Source of the DNA: Dehalococcoidales bacterium
Lineage (GTDB): Bacteria > Chloroflexota > Dehalococcoidia > Dehalococcoidales > Fen-1064
Assembly: GCA_035529395.1 (NCBI GenBank)
Contig: DATKWT010000122.1
Location: 1,496-65,495 of the forward strand
DNA: 64,000 bases
Direction: 5' to 3'
Every line of letters begins with the position of its first letter. Positions within the stretch are counted from its first letter, which is position 1. The notes under the pieces were generated by a model. It did no database searches. It was not told the DNA's origin and saw only the letters and a list, made by a program, of their open reading frames with translations. A program made the position numbers and the translations under genes. Positions 9,386-63,857 of the stretch are shown one piece after another.

Positions 9386-9412
9386 TCAAAGCTCCTATCC
9401 GGCTCAACTGGT

Positions 9413-26754: not shown

Positions 26755-26769
26755 TATCATACCGGTAAT

Positions 26770-38274: not shown

Positions 38275-39393
38275 ATGCCTGGCTTGAAAATAACACAAGT
38301 GCAATCCCAGCAAATGCGGCAGGAATTAAGACAGATCCTCCGCATAGAGCAGGCCAACCTGCTGCAAATGTCTGAGGGAGACTTTCATAAGATTCTCAAC
38401 GAGATAGAAAAGGCACCTCTTTTTATAAGGCTCTGTCAGAGAGATAAGATAATCCGACAACAGAAAATTCCCAGAACCGATATTTCGACCCGCTTTTTTC
38501 AGCCCAAAGATGAGTTAGTAGCCGATGGAGGTTCTCTTGATGCTGAGTCCCTGGTACAGAACAAGGAACAAATCGTTCGTCTGATAGAAAAGCTGGGAAT
38601 AGAAAAATTCAAGCGCTACTTCCTGTTTCCTGAATCAGGAATGACCCCGGAAGAGATTGCTGAGGAATGCAGTCTGAATATCTCGGAAGTCCAGGAGATT
38701 AACAGCCTTATCGATGACTTCTCTATACTAAGCGAGTTTTACCACCCTTCCGCTTTAAGCTCAAAGGTAATTCATTATTCAAAGATTGCCTCGATAGAGA
38801 GGCAGGGTGATAGCTTCATAATCGGGTACTACAATGCATCTTCTGCCCGAGGACGGTATTTGATTGATTATGAGAGCTTTGAAGAGTTGAAGACTAAAGG
38901 GGCTCTTACCAGGGATGAGGCCAGGGAAGCTAAGCAGCTATTCAAGAGGCTGGAACTAATCAATAGCCGCCAGGACACGGTAAATCAGATACTGCAAGGC
39001 ATTATTGATAAGCAGGCACTCTACCTGGACTGTGGTGCTCCGAACTCGCTCTTACCCTTCAGCCAGAAGGAACTGGCTGAAAAAATCGGTATTGCTCCCA
39101 GCTCTATTAGTCGCGCTATAAACAGTAGAAGCCTGGAAACACCCTGGGGTGCAGAGATTCCCCTCAAGGATTTTTTCCCCAGGCCGAAGAAGTTTAAAAA
39201 GGAATTAATCAGAAAGGTCCTTGAAACTGAGGAGGGGCTTTCTTCAGATGAGGCAATCAGGGCTAAGCTCCAGGAGAAATATGGTGTGGTTCTTTCTCGC
39301 CGCTCAGTGGCTAATCTGAGGAAAGAGTTGAAAGTCCCCGCCACCCGGAGCAAGAATAAGTATCTTCCCTATGAAAGCGAGGGGGTTAAATGA
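38275..39393 (+). CDS. rpoN: RNA polymerase sigma-54 factor, short divergent form (372 aa)
   Basis: Region I-like, Q/L-rich N-terminus (QSQQMRQELRQILRIEQANLLQM). HTH segment ELAEKIGIAPSSISRAINSRSLETPWGAEIPLKDFF. RpoN-box-like SRRSVANLRKEL. Confidence 0.75.
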   Translation: MPGLKITQVQSQQMRQELRQILRIEQANLLQMSEGDFHKILNEIEKAPLFIRLCQRDKIIRQQKIPRTDISTRFFQPKDELVADGGSLDAESLVQNKEQIVRLIEKLGIEKFKRYFLFPESGMTPEEIAEECSLNISEVQEINSLIDDFSILSEFYHPSALSSKVIHYSKIASIERQGDSFIIGYYNASSARGRYLIDYESFEELKTKGALTRDEAREAKQLFKRLELINSRQDTVNQILQGIIDKQALYLDCGAPNSLLPFSQKELAEKIGIAPSSISRAINSRSLETPWGAEIPLKDFFPRPKKFKKELIRKVLETEEGLSSDEAIRAKLQEKYGVVLSRRSVANLRKELKVPATRSKNKYLPYESEGVK

Positions 39394-41339
39394 GTATAGT
39401 TCATACCGACCGGGCAAAGTGCCAGGGTTGCTATGTATGTGTACGCAACTGTCCGGCCAAGGCAATCAAGATAAGAGACGGTCTGGCTGAGGTAGTAAGG
39501 GAACGTTGTATTGACTGCGGTCTCTGTATACGTGTCTGTGTCACGAATGCAAAGCAGGCGAAGAGCGACGTGGAAGAGGTCCGGCAATTATTAGCCCATC
39601 ATCCTGATGTGATAGCTGTGGTTTCATCCTCCTTCCCTGCTGCAATACTCGATTGTACACCCGGACAGCTTGTAACCTCTCTTAAAAAATTGGGATTTAC
39701 TGATGTGATGGAGGCAGCCTTCGGCGCTGAGCTCATTAGCAGGGAATACATCCGCATCATTAATGAAAGTGAAGGTAAACCTGTCATCTCGTCTAACTGC
39801 CCGGCGGTGGTATCCTACATCGAGAAGTACTACCCCTCAATACTCGGTAATTTAGCACCCATTGTTTCGCCCACTATTGCCATGGGTAGAATAATCAAAC
39901 AACGCTATAATGCGCAGGCTAAAGTGGTCTACATTGGTGCTTGTATCGCCAAAAAAACGGAAACCACAGATGATAATATTGACGGTGTGGTAGATGCCGT
40001 ACTGACCTTTATGGAATTAGAGCGTATGTTTGCTGACGGGGGAATTAACCCGGGCGGTGAGGAGGAACAGGAATTCTCCGGTCCCAAATCTAACCTTGGC
40101 CGGCTGTTCGCCATATCAGGGGGTCTGCTTAAGGTGATGGGGCTTAATGATGACATATTGAAAAATGATGTTATCAGTGTTCATGGCAGGGAGTATGTCC
40201 TCAAGATTCTTGGGGAGATTGCTCGAGGTGACATCACTGCCAGATTTGCCAACCTGTATTTTTGCCATGGGTGTATTGATGGACCATTTATTAATAATGA
40301 GCTCAGCGGTTTCAGCCGGAAGGGACTCATTGCCAGATATACCAGAAATAACGCAGACCCGATTCAAACCGAGAAAGATATCGAACAATATGCCGATATC
40401 GACCTCAGCCGTAAATTTAGCGGGCAAAATATCTATCTACCTACTCCCAGCGAGGAGGAAGTTCAGAATGTCCTGGAGGTGATGGATAGGGCAGACCCCA
40501 GTGTCCAGATGGATTGCGGCTCTTGTGGTTACGCCTCCTGTCGGGAGTTGGCTGTCGCCGTTTGCCAGGGTCTGGCAGAGGTTACTATGTGCTGGCCTTA
40601 TCTGCTGCAACAATTGGAGGGGACTCAGGAAGACCTTATCCAGGCGGAGAAGCTTACCTCTCTGGGTCAGATGGCAGCTTCTATTGCTCACGAGGTCAAT
40701 AATCCTCTCGCTGGTGTCCTTATCTATACCAAGTTGCTGGCTAAGAATATATCCGCTGAGAATATCGGTAAGGAAAAATCGCTGGACTACCTGAATAAAA
40801 TGGATACGGAACTCACGCGCAGTTCCAAGCTAATCCGTAATCTCCTGGATTTTGCGCGCCAGTCGGCGCCGACCCTCAGGCTGGTAGATATTAACCAGAT
40901 TATCGAGCAGACCTTTAGCGTCGCTGGTCACCAGGCTGATTTGCAGAATATTAAGGTGATAAGAGAACTGAGCCCTGACATACCTGAGGTTATGGCTGAT
41001 TTCGACCAGCTTCAGCAGGTTTTCACTAACCTTATCATGAACGCTATCCAGGCAATGCCAGAGGGAGGGGAATTAACCATTCGCACCTCGATAGGTAATA
41101 GCGGCCAGCTCAAGATGGAAGTTGAAGATACGGGTAGTGGTATTTCTCAGGAGAACATGCGTAAGCTCTATACCCCCTTCTTCACGACCAAAGAGAAAGG
41201 GAAAGGCGTAGGTCTGGGACTGGCTGTGGCCCATGGAATCATCCAGCGACATCACGGAAGGATTGAGGTACAAAGTAAGCAGGGAAAGGGAACCACCTTT
41301 ACTGTTTACATGGAGGCTAACCATGCAGGAAAAGGCTAA
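39390..41339 (+). CDS. sensor histidine kinase with N-terminal 2x[4Fe-4S] and an [FeFe]-hydrogenase H-cluster-like domain
   Basis: CQGCYVCVRNCP and CIDCGLCIRVC. H-domain-like motifs SSNCPAVV, GACIAKKTE and FCHGCIDGP. Cys motif CGSCGYASC...C. HisKA SIAHEVNNPL and HATPase N/G1/G2 boxes. Confidence 0.75.
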   Translation: MSIVHTDRAKCQGCYVCVRNCPAKAIKIRDGLAEVVRERCIDCGLCIRVCVTNAKQAKSDVEEVRQLLAHHPDVIAVVSSSFPAAILDCTPGQLVTSLKKLGFTDVMEAAFGAELISREYIRIINESEGKPVISSNCPAVVSYIEKYYPSILGNLAPIVSPTIAMGRIIKQRYNAQAKVVYIGACIAKKTETTDDNIDGVVDAVLTFMELERMFADGGINPGGEEEQEFSGPKSNLGRLFAISGGLLKVMGLNDDILKNDVISVHGREYVLKILGEIARGDITARFANLYFCHGCIDGPFINNELSGFSRKGLIARYTRNNADPIQTEKDIEQYADIDLSRKFSGQNIYLPTPSEEEVQNVLEVMDRADPSVQMDCGSCGYASCRELAVAVCQGLAEVTMCWPYLLQQLEGTQEDLIQAEKLTSLGQMAASIAHEVNNPLAGVLIYTKLLAKNISAENIGKEKSLDYLNKMDTELTRSSKLIRNLLDFARQSAPTLRLVDINQIIEQTFSVAGHQADLQNIKVIRELSPDIPEVMADFDQLQQVFTNLIMNAIQAMPEGGELTIRTSIGNSGQLKMEVEDTGSGISQENMRKLYTPFFTTKEKGKGVGLGLAVAHGIIQRHHGRIEVQSKQGKGTTFTVYMEANHAGKG

Positions 41340-42684
41340 AATCCTCGTTGTTGATGATGAGACTATTGTCCGCGAATCACTTAGTGACTGGCTAAACGAT
41401 ATCGATTATCGGGTATTCGCTGCAGAGAGTGGTTCTCAGGCCCTGGAAATCCTGGAAAAGGAAAGAATGAGCATTATCATTGCTGATTTAATGATGCCGG
41501 GGATGGACGGGATAGAGCTCATGAAGAGAGCCAAGGAAATCGTCCCTACTGTAGAGGTAATCATTATTACCGCTTTCGGGAGTATCCCCACTGCCATCAA
41601 TGCTATGAGGGAAGGTGCCTATGACTATGTCGAGAAGCCCTTCTGCCCGGAGAGGGTATCGCTGCTGGTTGAGAAACTGGTGGAGCATCAAGGGCTAATC
41701 GAGGAGAATATTTCCCTGAACAAGAAGCTGGAGCAGCGCTACGAGTTTGAGAATATCACTGCTAAAAGCCCCAAGATGCAACAGGTGATAGAGCTAATAA
41801 AAGTTGTAGCCCAGAGTAATGCCACTGTATTGATTACGGGTGAAAGCGGTACCGGCAAGGAGCTGGTGGCCCGTTCCATTCACTCTCAGAGCTATCGTCG
41901 GAAAAAGCCCTTTATCGCTGTCAATTGTGCCGCTTTACCTGAGAGTTTGCTGGAGAGTGAGCTGTTTGGGCATGAGAAGGGTTCCTTTACCGGGGCTTAT
42001 GCTCAGAAGAAGGGGAAATTTGAGGTGGCTAATAGAGGGACCCTTTTTCTGGATGAGGTTGGCGATATGAGTACCAACATTCAGGTCCACCTGCTCAGGG
42101 TACTGGAGGAGAAGGAGTTCACAAGGGTTGGTGGTAATGAGCTGGTCAAGACCGATGTCAGGGTTGTTACAGCAACCAATAGGGATATTAAGAAGGCGGT
42201 GACCAGTGGGGCATTCCGTGAAGACCTCTATTATCGATTAAACGTAGTCACTATTGAATTACCTCCATTAAGGGAAAGAAAAGAGGACATACCTCTCCTG
42301 GCCCAGCATTTTCTGGAGCAGTTTACCGTGGAGAACCAGAAGAAAACTATCGGGTTTTCCCCTGAGGCTACCGATTTTCTTTTGAAATACGAGTGGCCTG
42401 GCAATGTTCGGGAACTGGAGAATGCTGTTGAGAGGGCAGTCATACTAACAAAGAATTCCTATATCGAAGTGGGAGACCTGGCTCAGGACAATCCGATGTT
42501 AGTTCATTCCGCGCTGTCAGGAAAAAGCCTGAACGAGGTTGAGAAGAACCATATTCTGGATGTACTTACTAGAACTAACGGGAATAATAGCGAAGCTGCC
42601 AGAATCCTGGGGATTACCAGGATGACTCTGTATAATAAAATCAAGACATTTGGGCTGACTGTAAAGAAATTAGACAACGGCTGA
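41323..42684 (+). CDS. sigma-54-dependent response regulator (NtrC family: REC-AAA+-Fis HTH)
   Basis: ATG 41323 has a GGAGG RBS and overlaps the kinase gene by 17 nt. Walker A GESGTGKE, GSFTGA (GAFTGA variant), and a C-terminal HTH AARILGITRMTLYNK. Confidence 0.88.
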   Translation: MQEKAKILVVDDETIVRESLSDWLNDIDYRVFAAESGSQALEILEKERMSIIIADLMMPGMDGIELMKRAKEIVPTVEVIIITAFGSIPTAINAMREGAYDYVEKPFCPERVSLLVEKLVEHQGLIEENISLNKKLEQRYEFENITAKSPKMQQVIELIKVVAQSNATVLITGESGTGKELVARSIHSQSYRRKKPFIAVNCAALPESLLESELFGHEKGSFTGAYAQKKGKFEVANRGTLFLDEVGDMSTNIQVHLLRVLEEKEFTRVGGNELVKTDVRVVTATNRDIKKAVTSGAFREDLYYRLNVVTIELPPLRERKEDIPLLAQHFLEQFTVENQKKTIGFSPEATDFLLKYEWPGNVRELENAVERAVILTKNSYIEVGDLAQDNPMLVHSALSGKSLNEVEKNHILDVLTRTNGNNSEAARILGITRMTLYNKIKTFGLTVKKLDNG

Positions 42685-42728
42685 TTAATTCTTTTACATA
42701 TAGATAGTCTGCTTCAAGCAAAGAGTAA

Positions 42729-42762
42729 GGCTGTCCGGGATATCCTGGGCAGCCTTTTTATT
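42729..42762 (+). terminator. rho-independent terminator of the rpoN-HK-RR operon
   Basis: An 11-bp stem ggctgtccggg/cctgggcagcc (two G-U pairs) with loop atat, followed by TTTTTATTT. Confidence 0.75.
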
Positions 42763-42778
42763 TGGCAAGATAATTGCA
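42763..42778 (+). promoter_or_regulatory. sigma-54 (-24/-12) promoter TGGCAA-N5-TTGCA
   Basis: tggcaagataattgca has GG and GC at the canonical spacing. It lies 79 nt upstream of ATG 42857, immediately after the terminator. Confidence 0.7.
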
Positions 42779-42856
42779 CCTTATTAGTGTAGAGGTAGTG
42801 AAATGGTCGAGCCAGCAATCTTAAAGAGTCAAGTAATAAATGAAGGAGGTCGGAAC

Positions 42857-44128
42857 ATGAAACCCATACTGATTGTCGAAGACGAGGCTATTATGAGGGA
42901 GTCTCTGGAAGACTGGCTTAAGAATAGTGGCTATCAAGTGGAAACCGCAAAGGAAGGGGACGAAGCACTAAGAGTTCTCGGGGAACGGGACTTTGGTATC
43001 GCCGTCCTTGACCTGAAGTTGCCGGGTAAGGATGGACTTGAGGTGCTACGTGAGGCAAAAGAGAGAAATCCAAAGATTAAGGGAATCATCATTACCGCTT
43101 ATCCTTCAGTGGAGACAGCCGTAGAGGCAATGAAAATGGGGGCTATCGATTACCTGCCCAAGCCTTTTGACCTTAATGAACTGGAGGAGCTAATCAGTAA
43201 GACTCTGGGGCCGATCCAGGTTGAGATAAGACCCAAGGTAGCCGTTGAAGAAACTGTAGCTGAGCCGGTTGAATTAGAGATGGTTGAAGTTGAGGAGGTT
43301 GAGGTAGAGGAGGATATTACCATTGCTCAAGGGGAAGCCCCGGTTCACTTCAAGCAGGGCAAAGCTCATTTTGAGGCCGGTAGGTATGCCCAGGCACTCA
43401 GAGAATTTCAGGCTGTTCTGGAAATTACACCGGAGGATATCGAGAACAGGGTATGGGTCCAGAAGGCGAAAAAGGCGTTAGTTGAACCGCAGGGTGAAGC
43501 TGCAGTACAGGGAGCAGTGAAAACCAGGAATTGTGTCTGGGTGGGCATGGGGATGGTGTCACATCGTATCTGCACCAACAACTTTAATTGCGTAACCTGT
43601 GAGTTCGACCAGGAGATGCAGGACAAGCTGGCTCGTGGCGAAACTTCAGAGGCTGGGACTTCAGATGTTGATGCCGCCATGGAAAAGCTTCTGTCATTAC
43701 CCGGTAATAAGAGACTCTGCCGTTATGCTCTTAAGGGTGACGTCTCTTTCCGGCTATGCTCCCGTCTATACGCTTGTGATACCTGTGAATTCGGTCAGAT
43801 GATGGAAGATATCCAGCAGCAGAAGCTGGAACAAAAAGCAATTGCGCTGGCTGCCCGAAAAAAGGTACTGGTATCTTACTACATAGACCCGGAGAAGTGC
43901 CAGGGGTGCATGATTTGTCTCCGGAAATGCCCGGTGGAGGCTATCATCGGTGACAAAAAACTGGTCCATGTTATTGACCAGGAGAAATGCACCAAATGCG
44001 GGACATGCCTTGAAGTTTGCCCACCACGCTTTGGTGCCGTTACGATGTTATCTGGCGTGAAAGTGCCCGAAACCATTTCGGGTGGGCCCGAAACCGTTCC
44101 GGAGGGGACAGAAGCAGTACGCAGCTGA
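42857..44128 (+). CDS. response-regulator receiver fused to a TPR-like segment, two Cys4 motifs and a 2x[4Fe-4S] ferredoxin domain
   Basis: ATG 42857 has a GAAGGAGG RBS. REC (ILIVEDE...VLDLKLPGKDG). The motif C..C.....C..CEF.Q.M occurs twice. C-terminal CQGCMICLRKCP and CTKCGTCLEVCP. Confidence 0.75.
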   Translation: MKPILIVEDEAIMRESLEDWLKNSGYQVETAKEGDEALRVLGERDFGIAVLDLKLPGKDGLEVLREAKERNPKIKGIIITAYPSVETAVEAMKMGAIDYLPKPFDLNELEELISKTLGPIQVEIRPKVAVEETVAEPVELEMVEVEEVEVEEDITIAQGEAPVHFKQGKAHFEAGRYAQALREFQAVLEITPEDIENRVWVQKAKKALVEPQGEAAVQGAVKTRNCVWVGMGMVSHRICTNNFNCVTCEFDQEMQDKLARGETSEAGTSDVDAAMEKLLSLPGNKRLCRYALKGDVSFRLCSRLYACDTCEFGQMMEDIQQQKLEQKAIALAARKKVLVSYYIDPEKCQGCMICLRKCPVEAIIGDKKLVHVIDQEKCTKCGTCLEVCPPRFGAVTMLSGVKVPETISGGPETVPEGTEAVRS

Positions 44129-49272: not shown

Positions 49273-50268
49273 CTACAACTCCTGGAATTTAATTAGCTGT
49301 TGGTAGTCCATGACAGTGCTCATGCCCTGGTTCTCGACATCCAGACCAGCTTCCATAGCAGCGGCCACCGGATTCAGACCATTAACCAGGATTAAGCCAA
49401 TTCGATTAAGTTCCACCGGGACTTCACATACCGTCTCGCTGGCATTCCCCATCACCAATACACCACCTAATCCGGCTTCCCTCATTTTGGCCACCACATC
49501 TTCCACTATCGGTCGGCAGAGCGCTGGTATCTCACGGTAGGTGGCCAGTATTTTACCTTCCCCCGTTCTTATTACCTGTGTTACCGAGGTCATCCTGGCC
49601 CTGATGAACACCTCGGAAGGGTCAAGGGAACAACCGGCATACTGAATGAGCTCCACGAAACGGATAGGCTTATTATTTCGAACCTGAAGGATGCCGGAGA
49701 ATCCGGAGGCCATAGGGACACCAGCCTTGAGTGAGGTGCCATTGAACACAATGCTGCAAACCGTAGCCAGTCCTACCTTGCCATTGGGAACTACTAAATC
49801 ACCAAGTCTCTCACCCTCTTGAGCTATCGCTACCAGGTCGCTAACGCAAATCTCTCTGGCGAAAGCAGGTCTCATTGCCTGGAGTGCCTTTTGGAACTGT
49901 CCCTTCGGAAAGAGTGAGATATTGACCGGGACAGAACCGGTGCGATTCTGTGGATTGAAATCAGTGCGGAAGGCAAGTAGCTCAATTCTGGAGATGGCGT
50001 AGCCTACCTTGTCCTTGACCAGAGCGGTCCTTACCTCTTCAATTCCCTGTTCAGTGAGCACCCGACCATCCCGACGCCCCAAAAGCCTGGTCAACCCGCG
50101 CTCGTCCATTAGCTTGAGGTGGTATCTGACAGCTCTTTCTCCGAGTTCAACCCCGTAGTCTTTCAAGCGGCGAGAAATGACTCTGGCTCCAACCGATTCC
50201 TGAGAGTCACTCAAGACCTTCAATATGGCAAGCATCTTTCGCTCGACATTCTGCGTTTCAAAGCCCAT
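49273..50268 (-). CDS. NrpR-family (winged-HTH + DUF128) nitrogen-type repressor homologue
   Basis: N-terminus ILKVLSDSQESVGARVISRRLKDYGVELGERAVRYHLKLMDERGLT matches the archaeal NrpR wHTH pattern as I recall it. It sits 3 nt upstream of hisF. The ATG at 50268 follows GGAG. Confidence 0.65.
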   Translation of the reverse strand: MGFETQNVERKMLAILKVLSDSQESVGARVISRRLKDYGVELGERAVRYHLKLMDERGLTRLLGRRDGRVLTEQGIEEVRTALVKDKVGYAISRIELLAFRTDFNPQNRTGSVPVNISLFPKGQFQKALQAMRPAFAREICVSDLVAIAQEGERLGDLVVPNGKVGLATVCSIVFNGTSLKAGVPMASGFSGILQVRNNKPIRFVELIQYAGCSLDPSEVFIRARMTSVTQVIRTGEGKILATYREIPALCRPIVEDVVAKMREAGLGGVLVMGNASETVCEVPVELNRIGLILVNGLNPVAAAMEAGLDVENQGMSTVMDYQQLIKFQEL

Positions 50269-50367
50269 CACAATACTCCGTCAGTCACCAGATTATAAGG
50301 CTAGAGGAGACCGTGTTCCGTATTATATCTTTATTAAGGCAGCCTGTCAATCCGGTGCTGTGCGGGG

Positions 50368-50610: not shown

Positions 50611-53600
50611 GTGATGTCTACATTTGCTCAGCATGGAAACAGAAGTGGAGATTGGGGCCTCGCACGGGTCGAGAAGGAACTCAGGCTATCATCAGAGCAA
50701 CTACTGAGTCAATTCCGGACTGCCTGTGCACGAGCAAGCCTCCTGCTATCGCCTGATGAATTGGGCAGATGGGCAAACGAGGGTCTTGCTATGTCCCGCC
50801 ATTCCCCACCCCTCTCGTTGGAAGCAACAGAGGAGTATTTTCGGGTCACGCCCGAAGTCCTGGGTATTCTCCCATTCCCGCGTTTTCTCGATTGGGTCAG
50901 TAGAGGGAAGATGCTCTGCCGCGATAGTCCCGGTCTTGCTGCTGCCTACTTTCGAGCCAGCCCAAAGGCTCTGGCTATGCTTCCCGGGAGACAAATCGAG
51001 GTCTGGCTGGCAATGGGGCCGGGTCTCTATAAGAGAAACTCAGAATCAATGGAGCTGGCCTGCCGTTTCTTCGACGCCACCCCCGCTCTCCTGCAGAGTC
51101 TGAGCCTGATTAAAATGGAGCGATTTGCTCTGTTCCTTGAACGTCTGGCAGGGACCTCCTACGACCTGGCTGCCGAATGTCTGGGCTCAGCTCATCGGGT
51201 CCTGTCCACGTTAGGAGAGGAAGAGCGTGGGCCTTTCCTGGCTGTGGCCCTGGCCCTTGTTCGTCTGAATCCGAGGGCATCTGCTACCTTCTTTCAGAGA
51301 GGTACCGGGACCTTGGCCGGTATCGCTGGTGGGCAAAGGAGAAGGTTCCTTACACTAATGGGGAGAATAGCCCGATACAGCGGTCAGCTTGCTCTCTCTT
51401 TTTGTACCGATTGCTCGCAGGCCTTCGGTAGAATCGATAGCAGTCTGCATTCCCGCCTCCTGGACCGGGGTGAGGCCGTACTGGCAATATCAACCATTGC
51501 CGGGATAGAGTTTCTCAAGAGCTGTCCTGCCGTACTGGCAGAGATTGGCATTCCCGGACTGGAACGCTGGTTTAGAGAAGGGGTCAGGCTGCTGGGAAAG
51601 GATGAAAAAACGGGCCTTGCCTACTTCCGCCTTGAGTTTGCGGAAGAAAGGGCTCTGGAACGATTGCTGGTTACAGTCGAGCTTGACCAGGTCAGGGCAG
51701 TGCTGCTCATGTACGGCCAAGCTCTGGGAGGAACCGAGATAGAGATTCGGCCCAGTGAGAGCCTGGCGGTATGGAGTATGGGAGCCATACACCCGGGCAC
51801 ACCGACTACAGATGGGACCACTATCTTCCTGCCATCGTTAATGGACCAGTACGATTCGAATGAGGAGAACTTCACCTGGTACAAGGTGGCTGTCACCCAT
51901 CAGGCCGGTCATATCGAGTTCGGCACCTTCGACTTCTGCTTTGAAAAGGAAGCGGTACTGTTCCCTGACCGGCGACACCGGTTGCGGTCAACAGATGGAG
52001 CTGGCCTGACCGATATGGAGAGGTTCCTCAGCCTCTTCGACGATAGGAGGCTCGCTTCCGATATATACTCCCTGGTGGAGGACGTCAGGGTTGACTATCT
52101 GGTGAAGTATGGATACGCGGGAATAAGGGCCGGGTACAAGTCGGTCCAGCAGGAAACGGTGTGGAGACGTCCTTCTCCGGACCATCTTCCGCTGAGGGAA
52201 GCATTCCTCGAAATACTCATCCGGCTTAGCCTGGATGGCGAGCTTCCCATAATCCCTGATATCCTGCGTAGTCCAGTTGAATCAGCGGTGAAGCTCTTGC
52301 AGCGTTTACAGGCGTCGCGGGCAACCGTCGAGGATTCCGCTGAGGCTGCTCTTCGACTGTACGAGATTGCCGGCACCATCGCCAATACCTATGGACCGGA
52401 GTGGGAATGGGAAATAGCTAATCCTGGTGAAAGTGGGCCTGACATGGCAGTGAAAGCCTATCGCCGTTCTGATAGTGACAACGTCACCCTTGAACCGGGC
52501 GTGGAGGTACCATACCAGTCCCCGACAGATGTAGAATATCGTGGTGATTCCCATCCCGACACACTTCACATACTGCCAAAGGCTGAGGATGATTCCGACC
52601 AGGGGTTTCCGTCTCCCGTATCGCCTCCCGGCACTGAAGTGCAACTCAACGGGATTATGCAGGCAAGGAACGTCCTGTCCGGTCAGTACACGACAGACCT
52701 TCCCGGTGAAATCCGTGCCGAGGAGACTGTCTCTACCGGACAGGACGGAAACACAGGGCTGTCTGATACCGATTACCCAGGGGAGGGTGCTCTCCTGAGA
52801 GAAGACGGACAATCGTACCTCTATGATGAGTGGGATTTCCATGCCGGCTGCTATCGACCAAAGTGGTGCCGTGTGAGGGAGAAGCTGCTGCCTGAAGTTA
52901 GTACCGATTTCTTCGAGGAAACCCTGGCCCGTAGTCACCTGCTGGCCGCCCAGGTCAGGAAGCAGTTCGAGATGATAACCCCGGAACTTCTCAGGAAGGC
53001 GGACAGACTCTATGACGGTGAAGAACTGGACCTGGATGCTGTGGTCAGAGCCGTTGTGGATAGGAAGGCAGGGTGCATCTCTGACGAGAGGATATACTGG
53101 AAGAGGAGGAGGGTACAAAGGGACGTGGCGGCAATCCTGCTTCTTGATATGAGTGCCTCCACCAGTAACATAATCAAGGATACCGATGATGAATACCCTG
53201 AGTGGTACCTCGACCTGGTGGAAGGCTCCCCCAGAATGAGAGCGCAGGGGGGTGAAGTGCTGATAGGAGCATCACGGCGCGTGATTGATGTGATGAAGGA
53301 AAGCGTGGTGTTGATGATGAACGCCCTGGAAGGTGTCGGGGATTGTTACGGTGTCTATGGCTTCTCCGGTCACGGTCGGGATAATGTGGAGATACTGGTT
53401 ATCAAGGGAATAGACGAAGGATTCTCCGGCACTGTCAAGAGCAGGGTAGGCAGCATCGCACCGTTACACGGTACCAGAATGGGTTCGGCTATAAGACATG
53501 CCATCTCGAAGCTGGACACACATGATGCGAAGACAAAGCTACTCTTCCTGGTCAGTGATGGCTATCCTCAGGACGAGGATTATGGCCAGGACGATGGCGA

Positions 53601-53802
53601 TGAAGAATATGCCCTCCAGGATACCAGAATGGCCTTCCTTGAGGCCGAGCGAAAGAGCATTATGCCCTTCTGCCTTACGGTTGACATAGCCGGATACGAT
53701 TACCTGAGGAGAATCTGCCACGACATCAACTACGAAGTAGTCAATAACATCGAATCTCTACCGCAGCGTTTGCCCATCCTCTACAAGAGGCTGACATCCT
53801 GA
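50611..53802 (+). CDS. NorD/CbbO-like protein with C-terminal von Willebrand A domain (1063 aa)
   Basis: C-terminal VWA domain with MIDAS LLLDMSASTS (DxSxS), and later VSDGYPQD. The mid-region HQAGHIEFGT is reminiscent of NorD/CobT-type proteins. Start is GTG 50611 or ATG 50614. Confidence 0.65.
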   Translation: MMSTFAQHGNRSGDWGLARVEKELRLSSEQLLSQFRTACARASLLLSPDELGRWANEGLAMSRHSPPLSLEATEEYFRVTPEVLGILPFPRFLDWVSRGKMLCRDSPGLAAAYFRASPKALAMLPGRQIEVWLAMGPGLYKRNSESMELACRFFDATPALLQSLSLIKMERFALFLERLAGTSYDLAAECLGSAHRVLSTLGEEERGPFLAVALALVRLNPRASATFFQRGTGTLAGIAGGQRRRFLTLMGRIARYSGQLALSFCTDCSQAFGRIDSSLHSRLLDRGEAVLAISTIAGIEFLKSCPAVLAEIGIPGLERWFREGVRLLGKDEKTGLAYFRLEFAEERALERLLVTVELDQVRAVLLMYGQALGGTEIEIRPSESLAVWSMGAIHPGTPTTDGTTIFLPSLMDQYDSNEENFTWYKVAVTHQAGHIEFGTFDFCFEKEAVLFPDRRHRLRSTDGAGLTDMERFLSLFDDRRLASDIYSLVEDVRVDYLVKYGYAGIRAGYKSVQQETVWRRPSPDHLPLREAFLEILIRLSLDGELPIIPDILRSPVESAVKLLQRLQASRATVEDSAEAALRLYEIAGTIANTYGPEWEWEIANPGESGPDMAVKAYRRSDSDNVTLEPGVEVPYQSPTDVEYRGDSHPDTLHILPKAEDDSDQGFPSPVSPPGTEVQLNGIMQARNVLSGQYTTDLPGEIRAEETVSTGQDGNTGLSDTDYPGEGALLREDGQSYLYDEWDFHAGCYRPKWCRVREKLLPEVSTDFFEETLARSHLLAAQVRKQFEMITPELLRKADRLYDGEELDLDAVVRAVVDRKAGCISDERIYWKRRRVQRDVAAILLLDMSASTSNIIKDTDDEYPEWYLDLVEGSPRMRAQGGEVLIGASRRVIDVMKESVVLMMNALEGVGDCYGVYGFSGHGRDNVEILVIKGIDEGFSGTVKSRVGSIAPLHGTRMGSAIRHAISKLDTHDAKTKLLFLVSDGYPQDEDYGQDDGDEEYALQDTRMAFLEAERKSIMPFCLTVDIAGYDYLRRICHDINYEVVNNIESLPQRLPILYKRLTS

Positions 53803-56678: not shown

Positions 56679-57449
56679 TCAGGTCTGAGCCTTCTGTTCC
56701 CGCAGGGTGTCCAGCCAGCCGGCAGATTTCAAGTCGCGCTCGAGGAGGTGCTTGAGATAGCTCCTCATTATTGTCTCCAGTTCGCGGGAAAGTTGAGCGT
56801 TAAGCTTGAGGCGGTTGGCGGTATCGTAGTCACTACCCTGGAGCAGGCGCAGCACCTTGAGGGCATTGACGGAAATCGGGTAGGTGAATGGCTGGGTCTG
56901 GCGACAGTCCGGACAGAGGACACCGCCGGTAGAGGGGCTGAAATAGTTGGTCACCGGTTCCAGTGGCTGGTGGCAGGCAACGCACTGCTGTAGCTGGGGG
57001 CGGTAGCCGACCTCGTGGAGGAGCTTGAGCTCGAAGTAGCGCAGGGTGAGCTCCCGGTCCACATCCTGGCAGAGGTTGTGCATGGTATCGAGCAGAAGTT
57101 GAAAGAGGGCAGGATTCTCAACGTGCTCGGGGGTGAACTGGTTGACCAGCTCGATGAGATAGAGTCCGTAAGAGGTGAGCCAGAGATCAGTCTTCAGGAG
57201 GAGGAAGCCGTTGATAGTCTGGCTGCCGGTGATGGTATCCAGGTTCCGTCCCCGCGCCAGGGAGACCTGGCTGTGAGTGAGCATCTCCAGGTGGCCGGCG
57301 AGCTTGCTCTTAGGGCGGCGTACGCCCCTGGCCACACCCTGAATCTTGCCCAGACCGGGAGTGTAGAGGGTGAGAATATGGTCCGCCTCCCTCAGTTTGG
57401 TCTTTCTGATGATGATAGCTTCGGTCTGGTAGTTACGCGGTCTGGTCAT
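56679..57449 (-). CDS. recO: DNA repair protein RecO
   Basis: OB-fold N-terminus (EAIIIRKTKLREADHILTLYT) and zinc motif CVACH...CPDC. Confidence 0.88.
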   Translation of the reverse strand: MTRPRNYQTEAIIIRKTKLREADHILTLYTPGLGKIQGVARGVRRPKSKLAGHLEMLTHSQVSLARGRNLDTITGSQTINGFLLLKTDLWLTSYGLYLIELVNQFTPEHVENPALFQLLLDTMHNLCQDVDRELTLRYFELKLLHEVGYRPQLQQCVACHQPLEPVTNYFSPSTGGVLCPDCRQTQPFTYPISVNALKVLRLLQGSDYDTANRLKLNAQLSRELETIMRSYLKHLLERDLKSAGWLDTLREQKAQT

Positions 57450-58728: not shown

Positions 58729-59340
58729 CTAAAGCTTCTGCCTTCCTTCGATTGCCCGGGTGAGCGTGGTATCGTCGGCGTATTCCAACTCAGTACCGAA
58801 GGGGAGCCCATGGGCAAGTCGGGTAACCCTGACACCGATGGGGGAAATAACGTGGTTGAGGTAGAGGGCGGTCTGTTCACCTTCAAGGTTGGTATTGGTG
58901 GCCAGGATGACTTCCTGTATGGTACCTTCCTGCAGACGGTCGGTAAGCTCCCTGATTCTAACATCACCGGAGCCAACGCCTTCGGTCGGGGAGATGGCAC
59001 CGTGGAGTACGTGATAGAGGCCGTGGTAGACGCCGGTATGCTCTATTGCCAGGATGTCCTGGGGTTGCTCAACGACGCAGACCGTGCTGCGGTCGCGCTG
59101 CTCGCTGAGGCAGAGTGGGCAGGGGTCGACGTCAGTTACGTTGTAGCAGACGGAGCAGAGCGTTATCTTCTGCTTGACCTCCCGTATGGTGTCGGCGAGG
59201 AGGCCGGTCTGTTCGCGGGGAGCGCGTAGCAGATAGTAGGTGATGCGCTGAGCACTCTTGGGCCCGATGCCGGGCAACTTGCTCAGTTCCTGGACGAGCC
59301 GGTTGATGGCATCAGCGGCCGGTATGCGACCCTGATTCAA
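58729..59340 (-). CDS. recR: recombination protein RecR
   Basis: Hh[12 protein letters not shown], Cys4 zinc finger CSVC...CPLC, and a Toprim region. Confidence 0.92.
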
Positions 59341-59365: not shown

Positions 59366-59671
59366 TTAAGTCAGCCCCGGTATCTTGAGGCCGCCGGTCA
59401 GCCCCTTCATGCGCTTGGCGGCTGCCTTTTCTGATTTCGCCTGGGCGTCACGTACCGCTTTCAGTACCAGTTGCTCTAGCTGCTCCGGCTTCTCCGGGTC
59501 CATGGCGTCGGGAGAGATAGATATCGATACTATCTTCTGCTGACCGTTTGCGGTGACCTTGACGGCGCCCTTTCCGGCCTCGGCCTGCACTTCTGTCTTT
59601 TCGAGTTCCTTCTGGGCCTCTTCAAGTTTGGCCTTGAGTTGCCGTGCCTGGTTTATCATGGAAAGGTTCAT
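59366..59671 (-). CDS. ybaB: YbaB/EbfC nucleoid-associated protein
   Basis: 101 aa with the pattern AGKGAVKVTANGQQKIVSISI. It sits in the conserved dnaX-ybaB-recR order. Confidence 0.88.
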   Translation of the reverse strand: MNLSMINQARQLKAKLEEAQKELEKTEVQAEAGKGAVKVTANGQQKIVSISISPDAMDPEKPEQLEQLVLKAVRDAQAKSEKAAAKRMKGLTGGLKIPGLT

Positions 59672-61257
59672 ACTTCCTCCGTATCTTCAATCTGGGCACC
59701 GAGCTTCAGCGCTTCTTTCACGAGATGGTTGTCTTCAGCGACGCATTGTACGCGGCACGGGTGCCCGAGAAAGCTGCTTATAATGCTATCGACTACTCTC
59801 TGGTTTTCCGGGTCTTCGAGCTTCTCTTTGAATACCGGATATTTGAAGGAGAGGATTACCTTGTCATTCTCGACAGAGACCGGCTGAACGCCGGCGCTTC
59901 TCAGGATGGCCAGGGCGGGAGTTTTCCTGGTCTCCAGTGGGGCTTCCTCGATGACCTTCCTCCAGTCCTGCCGTAGTCGTTCCGTTTCGCTTCCCGGTGC
60001 TGCTGCCGGGCTGCTGGTGGCGACTGCGGGCTGCGGTGTTTCAGAGGGCGCGGGTTTTCTTTCCGGTGGCCTGGTGGTTGGCGCAGTGGTTACCGGTGGA
60101 GGTGTGGTCTTCTGCACCGGACGGGGTGCTGGTTCAGGTCGTCTGGCGGGCTTTTCTTCTTCGGCCGGTGGTGCCAGGCTGCAATCGACAATAGCCAGCT
60201 CCAGGGGGAGCGCGGAGTGGTTCTCAAGACCGATGTCAAGCTGGCCGAAGGTCTTGACCACCTTCAGTACATGGGCCAGCGAGGCTTTGGTGGCCAGGCC
60301 TTTAAGCTCAGCGAGGTCTTCGGTGGTGAGGTCGACCGATTCATCGGCACCGGTCTTGACCAGTAGTAGCGCCCTGAGATATTCGACCAGCTCACGGTTA
60401 AACTGACGCAGGTTAAGGCCGTCATTGTTGACGTTGTTTATCGTGGCCACCCCGGCGGGGATGTCACCATTGATGATGTGTCTGGCCAGCTCTATGGTAC
60501 GCCGGTCTCCTGTAATGCCCAGGACCTCCTGGACCTGGCGGAATCCGATATCGGAACCGTAGTAGGTGGTCATCTGCTGGAGAAGGTTCTCGGCATCGCG
60601 CAGGCTTCCGGTAGCGCTCCTGGCAATAAGGCGGACCGCCTCCGGCTCGGCGGTGATGCCTTCGCTCTCACAGATTCGGGTCAGTTTGGTGATGATGTCC
60701 TGCTGGGAGAGACGGCGGAAATCGAAACGCTGGCAGCGTGAGATGATTGTGGGGAGTATCTTGTGGGACTCGGTGGTAGCGAGGATGAAGATGACGTGTG
60801 CCGGCGGCTCCTCCAGTGTCTTGAGCAGGGCATTGGAGGCCGCAGTGCTCAGCATGTGGACTTCATCGATGATGTAGACCTTGTAGCGGGCTTCGTTGGG
60901 GGCGTAGTTGACCTTTTCGCGGAGACTGCGGATATCGTCGACTCCGGTGTTGCTGGCGGCGTCAATCTCGATGACATCCAGGGCACGCCCTTCTGTTATT
61001 GCCTGACACATGTCGCAGGTGTTGCACGCCTCACCCTGGCCGTTAGTCAGGCAGTTAACTGCCTTGGCGAGGGCCCGTGCAGTGCTGGTTTTGCCGGTGC
61101 CACGCGGACCGCAGAAGAGATAGGCGTGGGAAATGCGACCACTGGCAAGGGCATTGAGCAGGGTCTGCGTTATCGGTTCCTGACCGACCACCTCAGCCAG
61201 TGTTCCGGGTCGCCACTTACGGTAAAAGACCTGTGAAGTCATGTTTTTCGTCACCAT
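59668..61257 (-). CDS. dnaX: DNA polymerase III subunit gamma/tau
   Basis: FYRKWRP, Walker A GPRGTGKTS, zinc module C..C..C, DEVHML, SRC motif, and a Pro-rich linker. Confidence 0.92.
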   Translation of the reverse strand: MVTKNMTSQVFYRKWRPGTLAEVVGQEPITQTLLNALASGRISHAYLFCGPRGTGKTSTARALAKAVNCLTNGQGEACNTCDMCQAITEGRALDVIEIDAASNTGVDDIRSLREKVNYAPNEARYKVYIIDEVHMLSTAASNALLKTLEEPPAHVIFILATTESHKILPTIISRCQRFDFRRLSQQDIITKLTRICESEGITAEPEAVRLIARSATGSLRDAENLLQQMTTYYGSDIGFRQVQEVLGITGDRRTIELARHIINGDIPAGVATINNVNNDGLNLRQFNRELVEYLRALLLVKTGADESVDLTTEDLAELKGLATKASLAHVLKVVKTFGQLDIGLENHSALPLELAIVDCSLAPPAEEEKPARRPEPAPRPVQKTTPPPVTTAPTTRPPERKPAPSETPQPAVATSSPAAAPGSETERLRQDWRKVIEEAPLETRKTPALAILRSAGVQPVSVENDKVILSFKYPVFKEKLEDPENQRVVDSIISSFLGHPCRVQCVAEDNHLVKEALKLGAQIEDTEEV

Positions 61258-61380
61258 TATACCCTATTACGGCGGCTTTCTAAAGGTTTTGCGGGCGTTG
61301 GTATGGTTGGTGACAGGCCATTCTCTCCCGGCATTAAGAGTTGTATATTTGAGGAGAATCAAAATTTCACGCCACTGTCC

Positions 61381-61512
61381 TCAGTGGCGTGTCGCTCAGA
61401 ATGACATTGGTGGGTCAGATTGCTTCGTCGCTGGTGCTCCTCGCAATGACAGTAGGGGTAGGGTTGGATTCTGCGTCACTGCGGACAGTGCGCCACTGCG
61501 GACAGTGGTGGT
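61381..61512. repeat. REP-like cluster (gctcagaatgac, gctcctcgcaatgac, 2 x cactgcggacagtg)
   Basis: gctcctcgcaatgac recurs at 63976-63990. The direct repeat cactgcggacagtg is at 61477-61490 and 61494-61507, and each copy is itself a hairpin. Confidence 0.6.
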
Positions 61513-61557
61513 AAAGAAAGGAAAACAGCCCCGGCAGAATCCACCACGAGGGCTGTT
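61511..61557 (-). terminator. rho-independent terminator of the cetZ-like gene
   Basis: On the minus strand, aacagccc...gggctgtt forms an 8-bp stem followed by TTTTCCTTTCTTT. Confidence 0.5.
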
Positions 61558-61594
61558 CGGAAGGCGATACCGTGTCCTGAAACTTCAGGACATG

Positions 61595-62773
61595 TCAGTT
61601 CAGCAAGGACGGTACATCCTTGGCGTACTCGTCTATTTCCTTGAGCTTGCTCTCCACCTGCTTCTGCCGTTTCTTTATCGTGGAGACAACTCCAGCGGCC
61701 TCAATGTAGTACTTTCGGATTTTCTCCACATTCCTCAGTTCGGAGAGGATTACGGAGACCTCGAGGGAGCCCCTGTCCCTGGGATAATCACCGTTCCTGA
61801 TGATGGCTTCCGGAGTCAGGCTCTTGAGGTATTCGCCGAGTTCTTTGATGACACTGAGGCTCATCTCTTTGCCCGGTGCCGAGACCAGATAGAGTGCCCT
61901 GGTGGCGTCTTGAGTGTCGCACTTGAACGATAGCTCACTGATAGCTTCGTCCATTGCCTCTATTCCCCGGTGCATCTCGGTGCTCTTATCCCTGAAGTTG
62001 CGGGTTGTCTTAAAAGGCAGCCGGATGGATGGTAGCGCGGACTTCCCGTAGCCGATAACCGACCATCCGACTATGCTCTGGATAATATCCCCGGCATCGA
62101 GTAACCGGGCACCGACGTACTTGGCCTTCTTCTCCTCACCGGCACAGAGGATATTATAGAAAGGTTCAACAATCATATCATTAATCTGGGAAAGGTTGTT
62201 CCTCAGGGAAGCGTTCTTTCTGACGTACCTCTGGTTGTCAACCAGGAAGATGGCATCGGCTACGGAACTGGCCGACTTAAGGCATGTCGCCGAATTGTAG
62301 ATGGTCCTTTCTTCGGTACGCTCTTCGTGCTCAAAGGGAAGGATGAGCAGATTGTAGATTGGCTTGTCTACGTAGCGTTCCTTGATGACCTGTGTCATTA
62401 TGGATATCGCGCCGGAACCGGTGCCACCGGCGGTACCGGCAACCATCAGGAAGGCGTCTGACTCAAAGAAACGCGGGGTCCCTCTTATGGCGTCAATGAC
62501 CTTGTCGGCGTCCTCTCTGGCAATCTCGGCGCCGAGTTCGTTAATCTTGCCAACGCCGTGACCACCGGACTTGCGTCCCCCGATGAGAATTCTATGTTGG
62601 TAGTCAGGCTTGATATAAGACAGCCCGCTGAGGTCGGCAAGGTCAGTATTGACCGCAAAGGCGCCGGTGACTATCTCAATCCTGCGTTGTGCTCGTGACC
62701 TCCTGTTCAGTCGGGCAAATCCGTCGGCAATATTCGACCCACACTGGCCGAATCCAATTACTAGAAGCTTCAC
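61595..62773 (-). CDS. tubulin/FtsZ-superfamily GTPase, CetZ-like
   Basis: GTG start with a GAGGTG RBS. MKLLVIGFGQCGSNIADGF, GHGVGKINELGAEIA, the tubulin signature AGGTGSG, LVDNQRY and GDYP. By eye it is collinear with archaeal CetZ1 as I recall it. Confidence 0.8.
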   Translation of the reverse strand: MKLLVIGFGQCGSNIADGFARLNRRSRAQRRIEIVTGAFAVNTDLADLSGLSYIKPDYQHRILIGGRKSGGHGVGKINELGAEIAREDADKVIDAIRGTPRFFESDAFLMVAGTAGGTGSGAISIMTQVIKERYVDKPIYNLLILPFEHEERTEERTIYNSATCLKSASSVADAIFLVDNQRYVRKNASLRNNLSQINDMIVEPFYNILCAGEEKKAKYVGARLLDAGDIIQSIVGWSVIGYGKSALPSIRLPFKTTRNFRDKSTEMHRGIEAMDEAISELSFKCDTQDATRALYLVSAPGKEMSLSVIKELGEYLKSLTPEAIIRNGDYPRDRGSLEVSVILSELRNVEKIRKYYIEAAGVVSTIKKRQKQVESKLKEIDEYAKDVPSLLN

Positions 62774-62808
62774 CTTACCACCTCAAAACAAAACCGGATA
62801 TTGTGGTT

Positions 62809-62837
62809 ATTGTAAACTCACCAGCTTATATTGTCAA
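62809..62837 (-). promoter_or_regulatory. sigma-70 promoter TTGACA-N17-TACAAT for the cetZ-like gene
   Basis: The minus strand reads TTGACAatataagctggtgagttTACAAT in the gap-cetZ spacer. Confidence 0.6.
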
Positions 62838-62843
62838 ACCTGG

Positions 62844-63857
62844 CTACAATCCCCTGTCGGTAATGAAGGCGGCGAGGTCGGCCAGACGGCAACTGTAACC
62901 CCATTCATTGTCGTACCATGCGAGGACCTTGGTCATATTGCCCCCGATGACCATGGTATTGAGCGCATCGACAATAGAGCTCGCAGGATTCCCTTTGAAA
63001 TCCGTGCTGACGAGCTCGTCGGCACAGTACTCCAGTATCCCCGCCAGTGGACCCTCAGCGGCCTGCTTGAAGGCCTGGTTGACCTGCTCAACGGTGACTT
63101 CGGTATTGAGTTCGGCGACGAGGTCCACCAGCGAAACGGTGGACACAGGGACGCGCAAAGCCATACCGTGAAGCCTGCCTTCAAGCTCCGGGATGACACG
63201 TGCCACTGCGTAGGCGGCGCCGGTGCTGGTGGGGATGATGTTCAGGGCGGCGGCGCGGGCACGGCGCAGGTCTTTGTGGACCACGTCCATCACCTTCTGG
63301 TCATTGGTGTAGGCGTGGATGGTGGTCATCAGTCCTTTATTAAGTCCGAATTCATCATTCAGCACCTTGACCAGTGGGGCGATACAGTTGGTAGTGCAGG
63401 AGGCATTGGATATGATGTGGTGTTTCTCAGGGACGTACTGGTCCTGGTTGACGCCGAGGACGATGGTGATGTCTTCATTGCGTGCCGGGGCGGAGATGAG
63501 TACCTTCTTGACACTGTCCCCAAGGTGAGCGGAGGCTTTGGTGCCGTCGGTGAACAGGCCGGTCGACTCTATCACGATGTCTACCCCGTAGTCCTTCCAG
63601 GGAATCTCGGCCGGGTCACGCTCGGTAAGGGCTCTTATCTCTTTACCGTTGACAATGATAGAGTTGCCGTCTTTACCCGGTTCACAGGGGAAATGACCGT
63701 AGTTAGTATCCCATTTTAGAAGATGTGCGTTGGTCCTGGTGTCGGCAATGTCGTTGATGGCGACCACTTCCAGTTTGTCGGAGTGGTACTGAATAATGGT
63801 GCGGAGGGTAAGCCTGCCGATTCGACCGAAGCCGTTGATTCCGAGCCTGGTTGCCAT
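62844..63857 (-). CDS. gap: type I glyceraldehyde-3-phosphate dehydrogenase
   Basis: LGINGFGRIGR and the active site SNASCTTNC. Confidence 0.93.
   Translation of the reverse strand: MATRLGINGFGRIGRLTLRTIIQYHSDKLEVVAINDIADTRTNAHLLKWDTNYGHFPCEPGKDGNSIIVNGKEIRALTERDPAEIPWKDYGVDIVIESTGLFTDGTKASAHLGDSVKKVLISAPARNEDITIVLGVNQDQYVPEKHHIISNASCTTNCIAPLVKVLNDEFGLNKGLMTTIHAYTNDQKVMDVVHKDLRRARAAALNIIPTSTGAAYAVARVIPELEGRLHGMALRVPVSTVSLVDLVAELNTEVTVEQVNQAFKQAAEGPLAGILEYCADELVSTDFKGNPASSIVDALNTMVIGGNMTKVLAWYDNEWGYSCRLADLAAFITDRGL

Follow-up and report, generated by a model that had tools for sequence, protein, structure and literature searches.

The locus between gap and dnaX

A stretch of 64,000 nucleotides from a Dehalococcoidales bacterium (GenBank assembly GCA_035529395.1, contig DATKWT010000122.1; the whole stretch is hereafter called the window) carries on its minus strand, between gap and the dnaX-ybaB-recR genes, a coding sequence for a product of 392 amino acids. 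Judged from its sequence, this product is a CetZ-like GTPase of the tubulin/FtsZ superfamily and not an FtsZ. An initial annotation, made by a model from the DNA alone, had noted the position of the gene and picked out a set of motifs, all of which are present in the translation: GFGQCGSNIA (residues 7-16), GHGVGKINELGAEIA (71-85), AGGTGSG (115-121), LVDNQRY (177-183), and GDYP (328-331). The neighbours it named were confirmed by Pfam, all of them lying on the same strand (Table 1). The GC content is uniform in the window, that of the gene being close to that of its neighbours, and the ratio of nonsynonymous to synonymous substitution rates (dN/dS) of 0.06-0.11 against four orthologues indicates that the open reading frame (ORF) is under strong purifying selection.

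The gene had also been proposed to be monocistronic, with a promoter and a terminator of its own. A sigma-70-type promoter was located in the 70-bp gap separating the stop codon of gap from the cetZ-like start codon, in a region where promoter-like sites number three against 1.1 expected, and its TTGACA-N17-TA[CA]AAT pattern is kept in orthologous loci (L001-L008, L014, and L059) despite the divergence of the intergenic flanks. The GAGGTG core of the Shine-Dalgarno sequence is likewise conserved in orthologous loci at an equal distance from the start codon. On the 3' side, the first hairpin, directly after the stop codon, recurs in L001 and L002. The hairpin of the terminator-like element (61558..61523), part of which (61546..61532) was caught by the promoter/terminator scan, has a folding energy of -19.6 kcal/mol (z = -3.5), and L004, L006, and L014 carry a hairpin of unrelated sequence with a U tract at the same position. 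In orthologous loci, the promoter and the Shine-Dalgarno sequence persist within a spacer that has otherwise diverged, and a terminator-like hairpin holds its position though not its sequence; this comparison marks the signals as more than chance matches. Given their conservation, and given that dnaX possesses a conserved promoter of its own (TTTRGA-N17-TATAAT), the cetZ-like gene is very probably monocistronic.

The spacer between the cetZ-like gene and dnaX (61258-61594) is unusually long at 337 bp. It contains a tandem direct repeat of two copies (CACTGTCCGCAGTG), a 33-nt element (GTCATTGCGAGGAGCACCAGCGACGAAGCAATC, 61418-61450) with similar pieces in L001 and L059, and a strong hairpin (61391..61368), these inserts being absent from most orthologous spacers. 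The 33-nt element (GTCATTGCGAGG...GAAGCAATC) occurs once in the window; a degenerate pattern for it found no match in the fetched loci, and the Rfam scan of the window, spacer included, gave none either.

Table 1. Coordinates of the cetZ-like gene, its signals and its neighbours in the window, and of the convergent gene pair in related loci
Feature	Position	Strand	Remarks
cetZ-like coding sequence	61595..62773	minus	392 amino acids; GTG start; TGA stop at 61595-61597; coordinates include the stop codon
Codons for C-terminal peptide KDVPSLLN (residues 385-392)	61598..61618	minus	conserved in the family
Sigma-70-type promoter	62809..62837	minus	TTGACA-17-TACAAT; 11/12 consensus positions
Shine-Dalgarno sequence	62778..62784	minus	GAGGTGG; 4 nt 5' of the GTG start
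First hairpin	61573..61592	minus	GUCCUGAA-GUUU-UUCAGGAC; directly 3' of the stop codon; minimum free energy fold of 61515-61597
Intrinsic-terminator-like element	61510..61558	minus	stem-loop AACAGCCCUC...GGGGCUGUU, then UUUUCCUUUCUUU
gap	62844..63857	minus	Pfam
dnaX	59668..61257	minus	Pfam
ybaB	59366..59671	minus	Pfam
recR	58729..59340	minus	Pfam
recO	56679..57449	minus	Pfam
Convergent gene pair (related loci)	L013 4980-7747; L019 5189-7710; L072 4749-7768; L073 5122-7818		

When one genome for each GTDB species was scanned with the cetZ-like query, 68 loci were returned, nearly all from Dehalococcoidales and including two complete chromosomes of metagenome-assembled genomes (MAGs). The order gap - cetZ-like - dnaX - ybaB - recR - recO was observed in about 40 of these, down to a protein identity of about 60%; independent gene calls gave an identical order from gap to recO, and the divergence of the neighbouring genes tracks that of the cetZ-like gene. 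The closest database proteins (73-99% identity) belong to Dehalococcoidales/Dehalococcoidia MAGs, and most of them go under the name 'cell division protein FtsZ' or 'tubulin/FtsZ family protein'. On this comparative record, the gene is to be regarded as a stable and vertically inherited constituent of Dehalococcoidales. Of the two origins offered by the initial annotation, inter-domain transfer or an under-appreciated bacterial clade, the conserved synteny favours the clade and speaks against a recent transfer; the clade itself is likely to go back ultimately to an ancient transfer, at its base, from archaea to bacteria.

Related genomes were found to hold two or three paralogues each, as in CP070842.1 (L007 and L009) and MAG W156 (L006, L043, and L060). 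In many Dehalococcoidales, the interval from gap to dnaX is occupied by a cassette of one cetZ-like gene (A), two convergent genes, and a second cetZ-like gene (B). The convergent genes encode Ala/Glu/Lys-rich products of about 174 and about 640-765 amino acids, both predicted to be helical and the larger one repetitive. The pair was encountered in about 31 loci, directly 3' of a cetZ-like gene and usually between two paralogues, and its products are candidate partner proteins. No convincing Pfam match was obtained for these coiled-coil genes, a Phasin_2 match (3.8e-7) being probably compositional. The lineage to which the window belongs (L001-L008 and relatives) has a single cetZ-like copy at the site.

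Family identity and relationships

The CetZ/tubulin-like identity first proposed from motifs was borne out by domain, profile, and fold comparisons. In Pfam, the product matches Tubulin (PF00091, 6.6e-31) and, over residues 189-355, CetZ_C (PF21011, 2.6e-16; 60 bits against a gathering score of 21.6); neither FtsZ_C nor Tubulin_C was detected in it at E <= 1, and Tubulin_2 (15.6 bits, E = 0.0097) fell below its cut-off of 27. The FtsZ equivalog of NCBIfam, TIGR00065, gave 65.2 bits against a cut-off of 295.2. The best match in the PDB was Haloferax volcanii CetZ1 (4b46, 1.9e-43), which extends over residues 1-379 and corroborates the collinearity with this protein that had been claimed by eye; CetZ2 (4b45, 5e-27) and the Methanosaeta CetZ-like protein (3zid, 3e-14) came next, followed by true FtsZs at 5e-9 or weaker over the N-terminal domain only. 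The structure prediction suggested by the initial annotation pointed the same way: the AlphaFold2 model (predicted local distance difference test score 85.9, predicted template modelling score 0.85) displays a two-domain fold with a long C-terminal helix (350-384), for which Foldseek returned 4b46, 4b45, and 3zid as top matches (template modelling (TM) scores of 0.92, 0.90, and 0.81), with root-mean-square deviations of 2.5-2.7 Å to the CetZ1/CetZ2 structures, while FtsZ folds ranked lower (query-normalised TM of about 0.66). Furthermore, a CetZ profile built solely from 42 representatives outside the Chloroflexota group, only some of which bear a confirmed archaeal name, gave 303 bits with the 392-residue product, compared with 65-67 bits for the FtsZs of Escherichia coli and Bacillus subtilis and 42 bits for β-tubulin, the outgroup sequences having been checked against the PDB. 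At the 27 alignment columns in which the consensus of this set departs from FtsZ, the latter represented by two sequences only, the product agrees with CetZ in 17 cases and with FtsZ in none. Residues that set the CetZ consensus apart from FtsZ have been described as lying in a cluster near the nucleotide pocket (Brown et al. 2023, PMC9856176).

The likeness to H. volcanii CetZ1 and CetZ2 is one of full-length collinearity, with the same fold, CetZ_C in common, and shared motifs comprising GHGVGxxNELGAE (T3), GGTGSG, LP...E (T5), DN (T6), and R-x-GDYP. The acidic pair of T7 is D215/E218 in CetZ1 and D226/D229 in the bacterial protein, and the long C-terminal helix of CetZ1 with its short hydrophobic tail LESLF has a bacterial counterpart ending in DVPSLL. 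Identity amounts to only about 30-33%, and the host is here a bacterium. The bacterial protein differs further in having the tubulin-like GQCG in place of GQAG in T1, in lacking the long CetZ1-type M-loop with its LLSRL tip (the corresponding region, 246-259, being short and of low confidence in the AlphaFold2 model), and in not being acidic, unlike the CetZ proteins of halophiles. The CetZ-like protein of Methanosaeta thermophila (3zid) shares GQCG (T1), LPF (T5), and LVDNQ (T6), yet its match is confined to the N-terminal two-thirds at about 22-28% identity.

Within Chloroflexota, the sister of the Dehalococcoidales family in the same supergroup is a SAR202/Chloroflexi family of 418-424 amino acids (P0147, P0409, and P0423, for example), whose named members are recorded as 'Chloroflexi', 'Dehalococcoidia', and 'SAR202 cluster' bacteria. 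It possesses the Tubulin and CetZ_C domains and a hydrophobic-P-x-L ending and shares the residues that are invariant in nucleotide binding and in T7, but differs in identity (about 38%), in T1 (GQGG, GEGG, or GDGG), in its tail (LP[ND]L), and in genomic context, which consists of ABC-transporter genes and a downstream ORF of 221-290 amino acids. In L069-L071, the CetZ-like gene of this family (8001-9269) is followed by a conserved, Pfam-negative ORF (9374-10248), which may be a partner.

The resemblance to bacterial FtsZ extends to the superfamily fold, the GTPase domain, and a short C-terminal peptide of the D-[IV]-P-x-[FL]-L type; on the other hand, T1 is GGGG and T4 contains GTG in FtsZ as opposed to GQCG and GSG here, and the bacterial CetZ-like protein has neither FtsZ_C nor the long disordered linker, carries an extra C-terminal helix, and is encoded outside any dcw (division and cell wall) or ftsA context. 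Tubulin and BtubA/B have in common with it GQCG in T1, GGTGSG in T4, and a C-terminal helical extension. A tubulin or BtubAB identity was nevertheless rejected, with Tubulin_C being absent, identity to β-tubulin being 17% over aligned columns, and the PDB matches to tubulin and BtubB being partial at about 1e-5.

The size of the family was assessed by an exhaustive search of 1.84 billion cluster representatives, which yielded 985 relatives at E <= 1e-3, 273 at <= 1e-10, and 73 at <= 1e-30 (clusters at 50% identity); the family counts thousands of proteins in the databases. Neighbour-joining trees of a modest sample, in which identified Thermococcales CetZs were not included, united the Dehalococcoidales core, a set of intermediates (one of them named Dehalococcoidia), and the SAR202/Chloroflexi family in one group (bootstrap support 83.5%). 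A profile made from the intermediates (A3) retrieved mostly core-family matches and no new named taxa. FtsZ fell far outside both CetZ-type groups, so the branching within bacterial FtsZ that would have spoken against a CetZ-like identity did not occur. β-Tubulin fell inside the archaeal group, a placement treated as long-branch attraction and from which no conclusion was drawn. The boundary of the canonical CetZ clade has been set at the Thermococcales CetZs (PMC9856176). In this sequence set, the bacterial protein did not branch inside the group containing CetZ1 and CetZ2, and for this reason 'CetZ-like, non-canonical' is the safer name.

The literature continues to treat CetZs as cytoskeletal proteins of cell shape that are specific to archaea (PMC9856176, PMC11621097), whereas the gene described here sits in a bacterial context and has its closest relatives in Dehalococcoidales MAGs. 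The clade as such is not unknown: Santana-Molina et al. in 2023 listed CetZ-like proteins of Chloroflexota-Dehalococcoidia with matches of about 1e-10 to a hidden Markov model (HMM) for the CetZ C-terminal domain (PMC9871819), and some JGI and NCBI records name members 'tubulin-like protein CetZ'. What stands of the description 'under-appreciated' is that the family is neglected and uncharacterised, and the novelty is accordingly modest. In a limited literature search, no description was found of the size of the radiation, of its housekeeping synteny and own promoter, of the multiple paralogues, of the coiled-coil cassette, of the conserved C-terminal peptide, or of the restriction of all named members to the peptidoglycan-less Dehalococcoidales and SAR202. 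Across the family, the database labels range over 'cell division protein FtsZ', 'cell division GTPase FtsZ', 'tubulin/FtsZ family protein', 'hypothetical protein', and 'tubulin-like protein CetZ'. The 'FtsZ' labels can mislead surveys of the divisome, especially where an FtsZ HMM is used with no cut-off.

A putative shape cytoskeleton and its rivals

Conservation was measured over 74 sequences drawn from both bacterial families, whose mutual identity is only about 38%. The invariant residues are G9, Q10, G12, G71, G73, G75, K76, N78, G116-S120, D179, N180, N198, D226, and D229, corresponding to the loop patterns G-x-G-Q-x-G (T1), G-x-G-x-G-K-x-N (T3), A-G-G-T-G-S (T4), D-N (T6), and L-D-A-x-D (T7); the loops of the 392-residue product itself read GQCG, GHGVGKIN, AGGTGSG, VDNQ, and LDAGD, respectively. 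In the alignment with CetZ1, D226 falls on D215 and D229 on the catalytic E218. In the haloarchaeal protein, both E218 and the T4 residue G108 are needed for CetZ1 dynamics and rod formation (bioRxiv 10.1101/2024.04.08.588506). The pattern of conservation would fit head-to-tail polymerisation, with GTP being hydrolysed at the interface between subunits.

A second conserved element is the C-terminal peptide, of consensus KD[IV]PSL[LI], which follows the long helix; a [KR]D[IV]P[ST]L[LI] ending was recorded in nearly all of the 76 complete family members among the fetched loci. The tail of the SAR202 family reads hydrophobic-P-[ND]-L, with P388 and L390 being invariant across both families. The analogous CetZ1 tail, LESLF, may contact a neighbouring subunit, and its mutation abolishes rod development (bioRxiv 10.1101/2024.04.08.588506). 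Given this analogy and the likeness of the bacterial peptide to the C-terminal peptide with which FtsZ binds SepF or FtsA, the tail is expected to be a docking element, for which FtsA or SepF, coiled-coil proteins, the membrane, and adjacent subunits are candidate targets.

The physiology of the host lineages gives these features a setting. Dehalococcoidales and SAR202 have been reported to lack the peptidoglycan genes of the dcw cluster while keeping adjacent mraZ-mraW-ftsA-ftsZ, the ftsA-ftsZ pair being present in all high-quality Dehalococcoidales genomes examined, and Dehalococcoides mccartyi has a wall of the surface-layer (S-layer) type (PMC10608941). In the proteome of D. mccartyi BTF08, FtsZ (btf_0595) was detected together with a separate 'FtsZ/tubulin GTPase' (btf_0551); in co-culture cells, whose shape was unusual in being that of a barrel and not, as in pure culture, that of a disc, both proteins and a hypothetical one encoded nearby (btf_0548) were reduced or missing (PMC8163811). 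Haloferax CetZ1, for its part, drives the transition from plate to rod (bioRxiv 10.1101/2024.04.08.588506).

By analogy with these systems, the best explanation of the gene is a GTP-dependent polymerising cytoskeleton that would control shape in wall-less cells, to which we would assign a probability of roughly 0.6. The protein would bind GTP and assemble head to tail into protofilaments in the manner of CetZ1, CetZ2, and FtsZ, with the acidic T7 residues of one subunit completing the GTPase site of the next so as to yield dynamic polymers. The hydrophobic C-terminal peptide would dock the polymer either on a partner or an anchor in the membrane or else on adjacent subunits, and the filaments would then organise the envelope and control the shape of S-layer-type cells that have no peptidoglycan elongation machinery. 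Such a system would run beside the canonical FtsA-FtsZ divisome, which is reportedly retained in the order.

Several points weigh against this proposal. Polymerisation, GTPase activity, and the shape role are extrapolated from Haloferax CetZ1/CetZ2 and from FtsZ. The Chloroflexota group lies outside the neighbour-joining group formed by CetZ1/CetZ2 with Nitrososphaerales and Bathyarchaeia sequences, so its functions may differ. The first glycine of T4, equivalent to the functionally needed G108 of CetZ1, is an alanine here, an exchange still inside the tubulin signature pattern. The lineage of the window has, at this site and within the window, no copy of the coiled-coil gene pair that is common elsewhere in Dehalococcoidales. 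In D. mccartyi, btf_0551 is only a putative member of the CetZ-like family. Finally, neither ftsZ nor ftsA lies in the window or the loci, and should they be absent genome-wide, the protein could itself be a division protein; a tblastn search with E. coli FtsZ found no canonical ftsZ in the window and the 68 loci, where the cetZ-like genes alone matched, weakly, so that the presence of FtsZ in the genome rests on the literature.

The main rival is an accessory or alternative component of the divisome, in which KDVPSLL would mimic the FtsZ C-terminal peptide and share its FtsA or SepF tether, the polymer acting at the site of division in an arrangement comparable to the two FtsZ paralogues at work in many archaea. 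The tails of E. coli and B. subtilis FtsZ, DIPAFL and DIPTFL, are indeed similar, and the bacterial CetZ-like peptide stands at the extreme C-terminus of nearly all members. It also resembles the C-terminal domain of Corynebacterium glutamicum FtsZ, DDLDVPSFLQ, which binds SepF (PMC7118173). A divisome role would moreover agree with the retention of ftsA in Dehalococcoidales and with the joint change in abundance of FtsZ and the tubulin-like protein in D. mccartyi. However, CetZ1 likewise ends in a hydrophobic tail and yet acts in shape, so a tail of this kind is a feature of the superfamily and no proof of FtsA or SepF binding, and the cetZ-like gene is unlinked to ftsA or ftsZ in the window and in the loci. 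On balance, this role is rather unlikely.

That the gene encodes the organism's own divergent cell-division FtsZ, as the source annotations in NCBI and JGI commonly have it, is improbable. The proposal can draw on those labels and on there being no other ftsZ in the 64 kb, but it is contradicted by the TIGR00065 score (65 bits against 295), by CetZ_C standing in place of FtsZ_C, and by the discriminating columns, not one of which has the FtsZ residue. Nor is the gene placed beside ftsA or mraZ/mraW. The canonical ftsA-ftsZ pair reported in the order, the two distinct proteins of D. mccartyi, and the two or three paralogues of related genomes are equally at odds with it.

An origin by recent transfer between domains, or from an archaeal contig or segment that was wrongly assembled or binned into a bacterial genome, would account for the CetZ family being otherwise archaeal and for the nearest named relatives outside Chloroflexota being Nitrososphaerales, Bathyarchaeia, and Haloferax. 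It is very improbable and can be set aside because the content of the window is bacterial, its GC is uniform, the synteny is recurrent, and gene and neighbours diverge in step. The rest of the window has the usual gene content of an anaerobic bacterium, with sigma-54 and the protein that activates it, a GGDEF protein, Hdr-like CCG/Fe-S proteins, and glycosyltransferases, and no division or shape gene was found in it. The same gap-dnaX order in dozens of independent MAGs and in two complete chromosomes, and the conserved bacterial sigma-70 promoter and Shine-Dalgarno sequence, are further counter-evidence. One match does bear an archaeal label (L063, CAZWNN010000058.1, Candidatus Woesearchaeota). 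This 3.6-kb contig contains the 3' end of a cetZ-like gene, the 174-amino-acid gene, the repeat gene, and the 5' end of a cetZ-like gene, a cassette of the Dehalococcoidales type. The contig is probably a bacterial one binned in error, not a sign of an archaeal donor.

Least probable of all is a DNA-segregation tubulin of the TubZ/PhuZ kind or a member of the FtsZl/Tubulin_2 membrane-remodelling family, which is suggested by the weak Tubulin_2 match and by the placement of TubZ near CetZ by Santana-Molina et al. (PMC9871819), but is opposed by the sub-threshold score of that match, by the chromosomal housekeeping synteny with no TubR/tubC-like or phage context in the window, and by the match to CetZ_C, given that the published HMM of the CetZ_C type misses TubZ (PMC9871819).

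The shape-cytoskeleton proposal can be extended to the history of the lineage, although only as a tentative idea about which we are more doubtful than confident. A CetZ-type cytoskeleton may have entered from archaea at or near the base of the wall-less Dehalococcoidia (Dehalococcoidales and SAR202), at about the time when the genes for peptidoglycan and the elongasome disappeared, and may have diversified there into several paralogues to become, together with the coiled-coil pair that in many lineages separates two copies, the main shape system of S-layer-type, disc-shaped bacteria. If true, this would be a bacterial counterpart of haloarchaeal plate/rod morphogenesis, and CetZ would not be archaea-specific. 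What is at hand is a large Chloroflexota radiation of CetZ-like proteins whose named members belong to lineages reported to have no peptidoglycan synthesis while keeping FtsA/FtsZ. Should these proteins shape wall-less cells, they would offer a second, bacterial study system for CetZ, including cultured Dehalococcoides with a tubulin-like protein in its proteomes, as well as a concrete case of an archaeal-type cytoskeleton built into bacterial cell biology, with the coiled-coil gene pair and the C-terminal docking peptide indicating its candidate partners.

Other observations in the window

Further features of the window are recorded here in their own right. An ORF of 1063 amino acids (50611-53802, plus strand) has only a marginal match to VWA, at its C-terminus (23.1 bits; cut-off 23.8), and is otherwise unannotatable. 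An envelope-related cluster on the plus strand (28006-34681) encodes a PTPS-domain protein, a PTPS_related membrane protein of 859 amino acids, an exosortase-like membrane protein, and a family-2 glycosyltransferase, and just upstream of it (25885-27774) lie genes for a UbiA prenyltransferase and an LPG_synthase_TM protein. A regulatory cluster on the same strand (38275-44128) comprises a sigma-54-like protein in which only the DNA-binding domain was detected, a 649-amino-acid fusion of a histidine kinase with a domain like the large subunit of [FeFe]-hydrogenase (Fe_hyd_lg_C, HisKA, and HATPase_c), a response regulator of the sigma-54 activator type, and a receiver-TPR-ferredoxin protein; it may be a two-component system that senses H2 or redox state. 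Last, a full-length homologue of NrpR, the nitrogen repressor best known from methanogenic Euryarchaeota, is encoded at 49273-50271 on the minus strand (PF01995, 1.5e-79, with HTH_12), and would be a further gene of archaeal type on this stretch of bacterial DNA.

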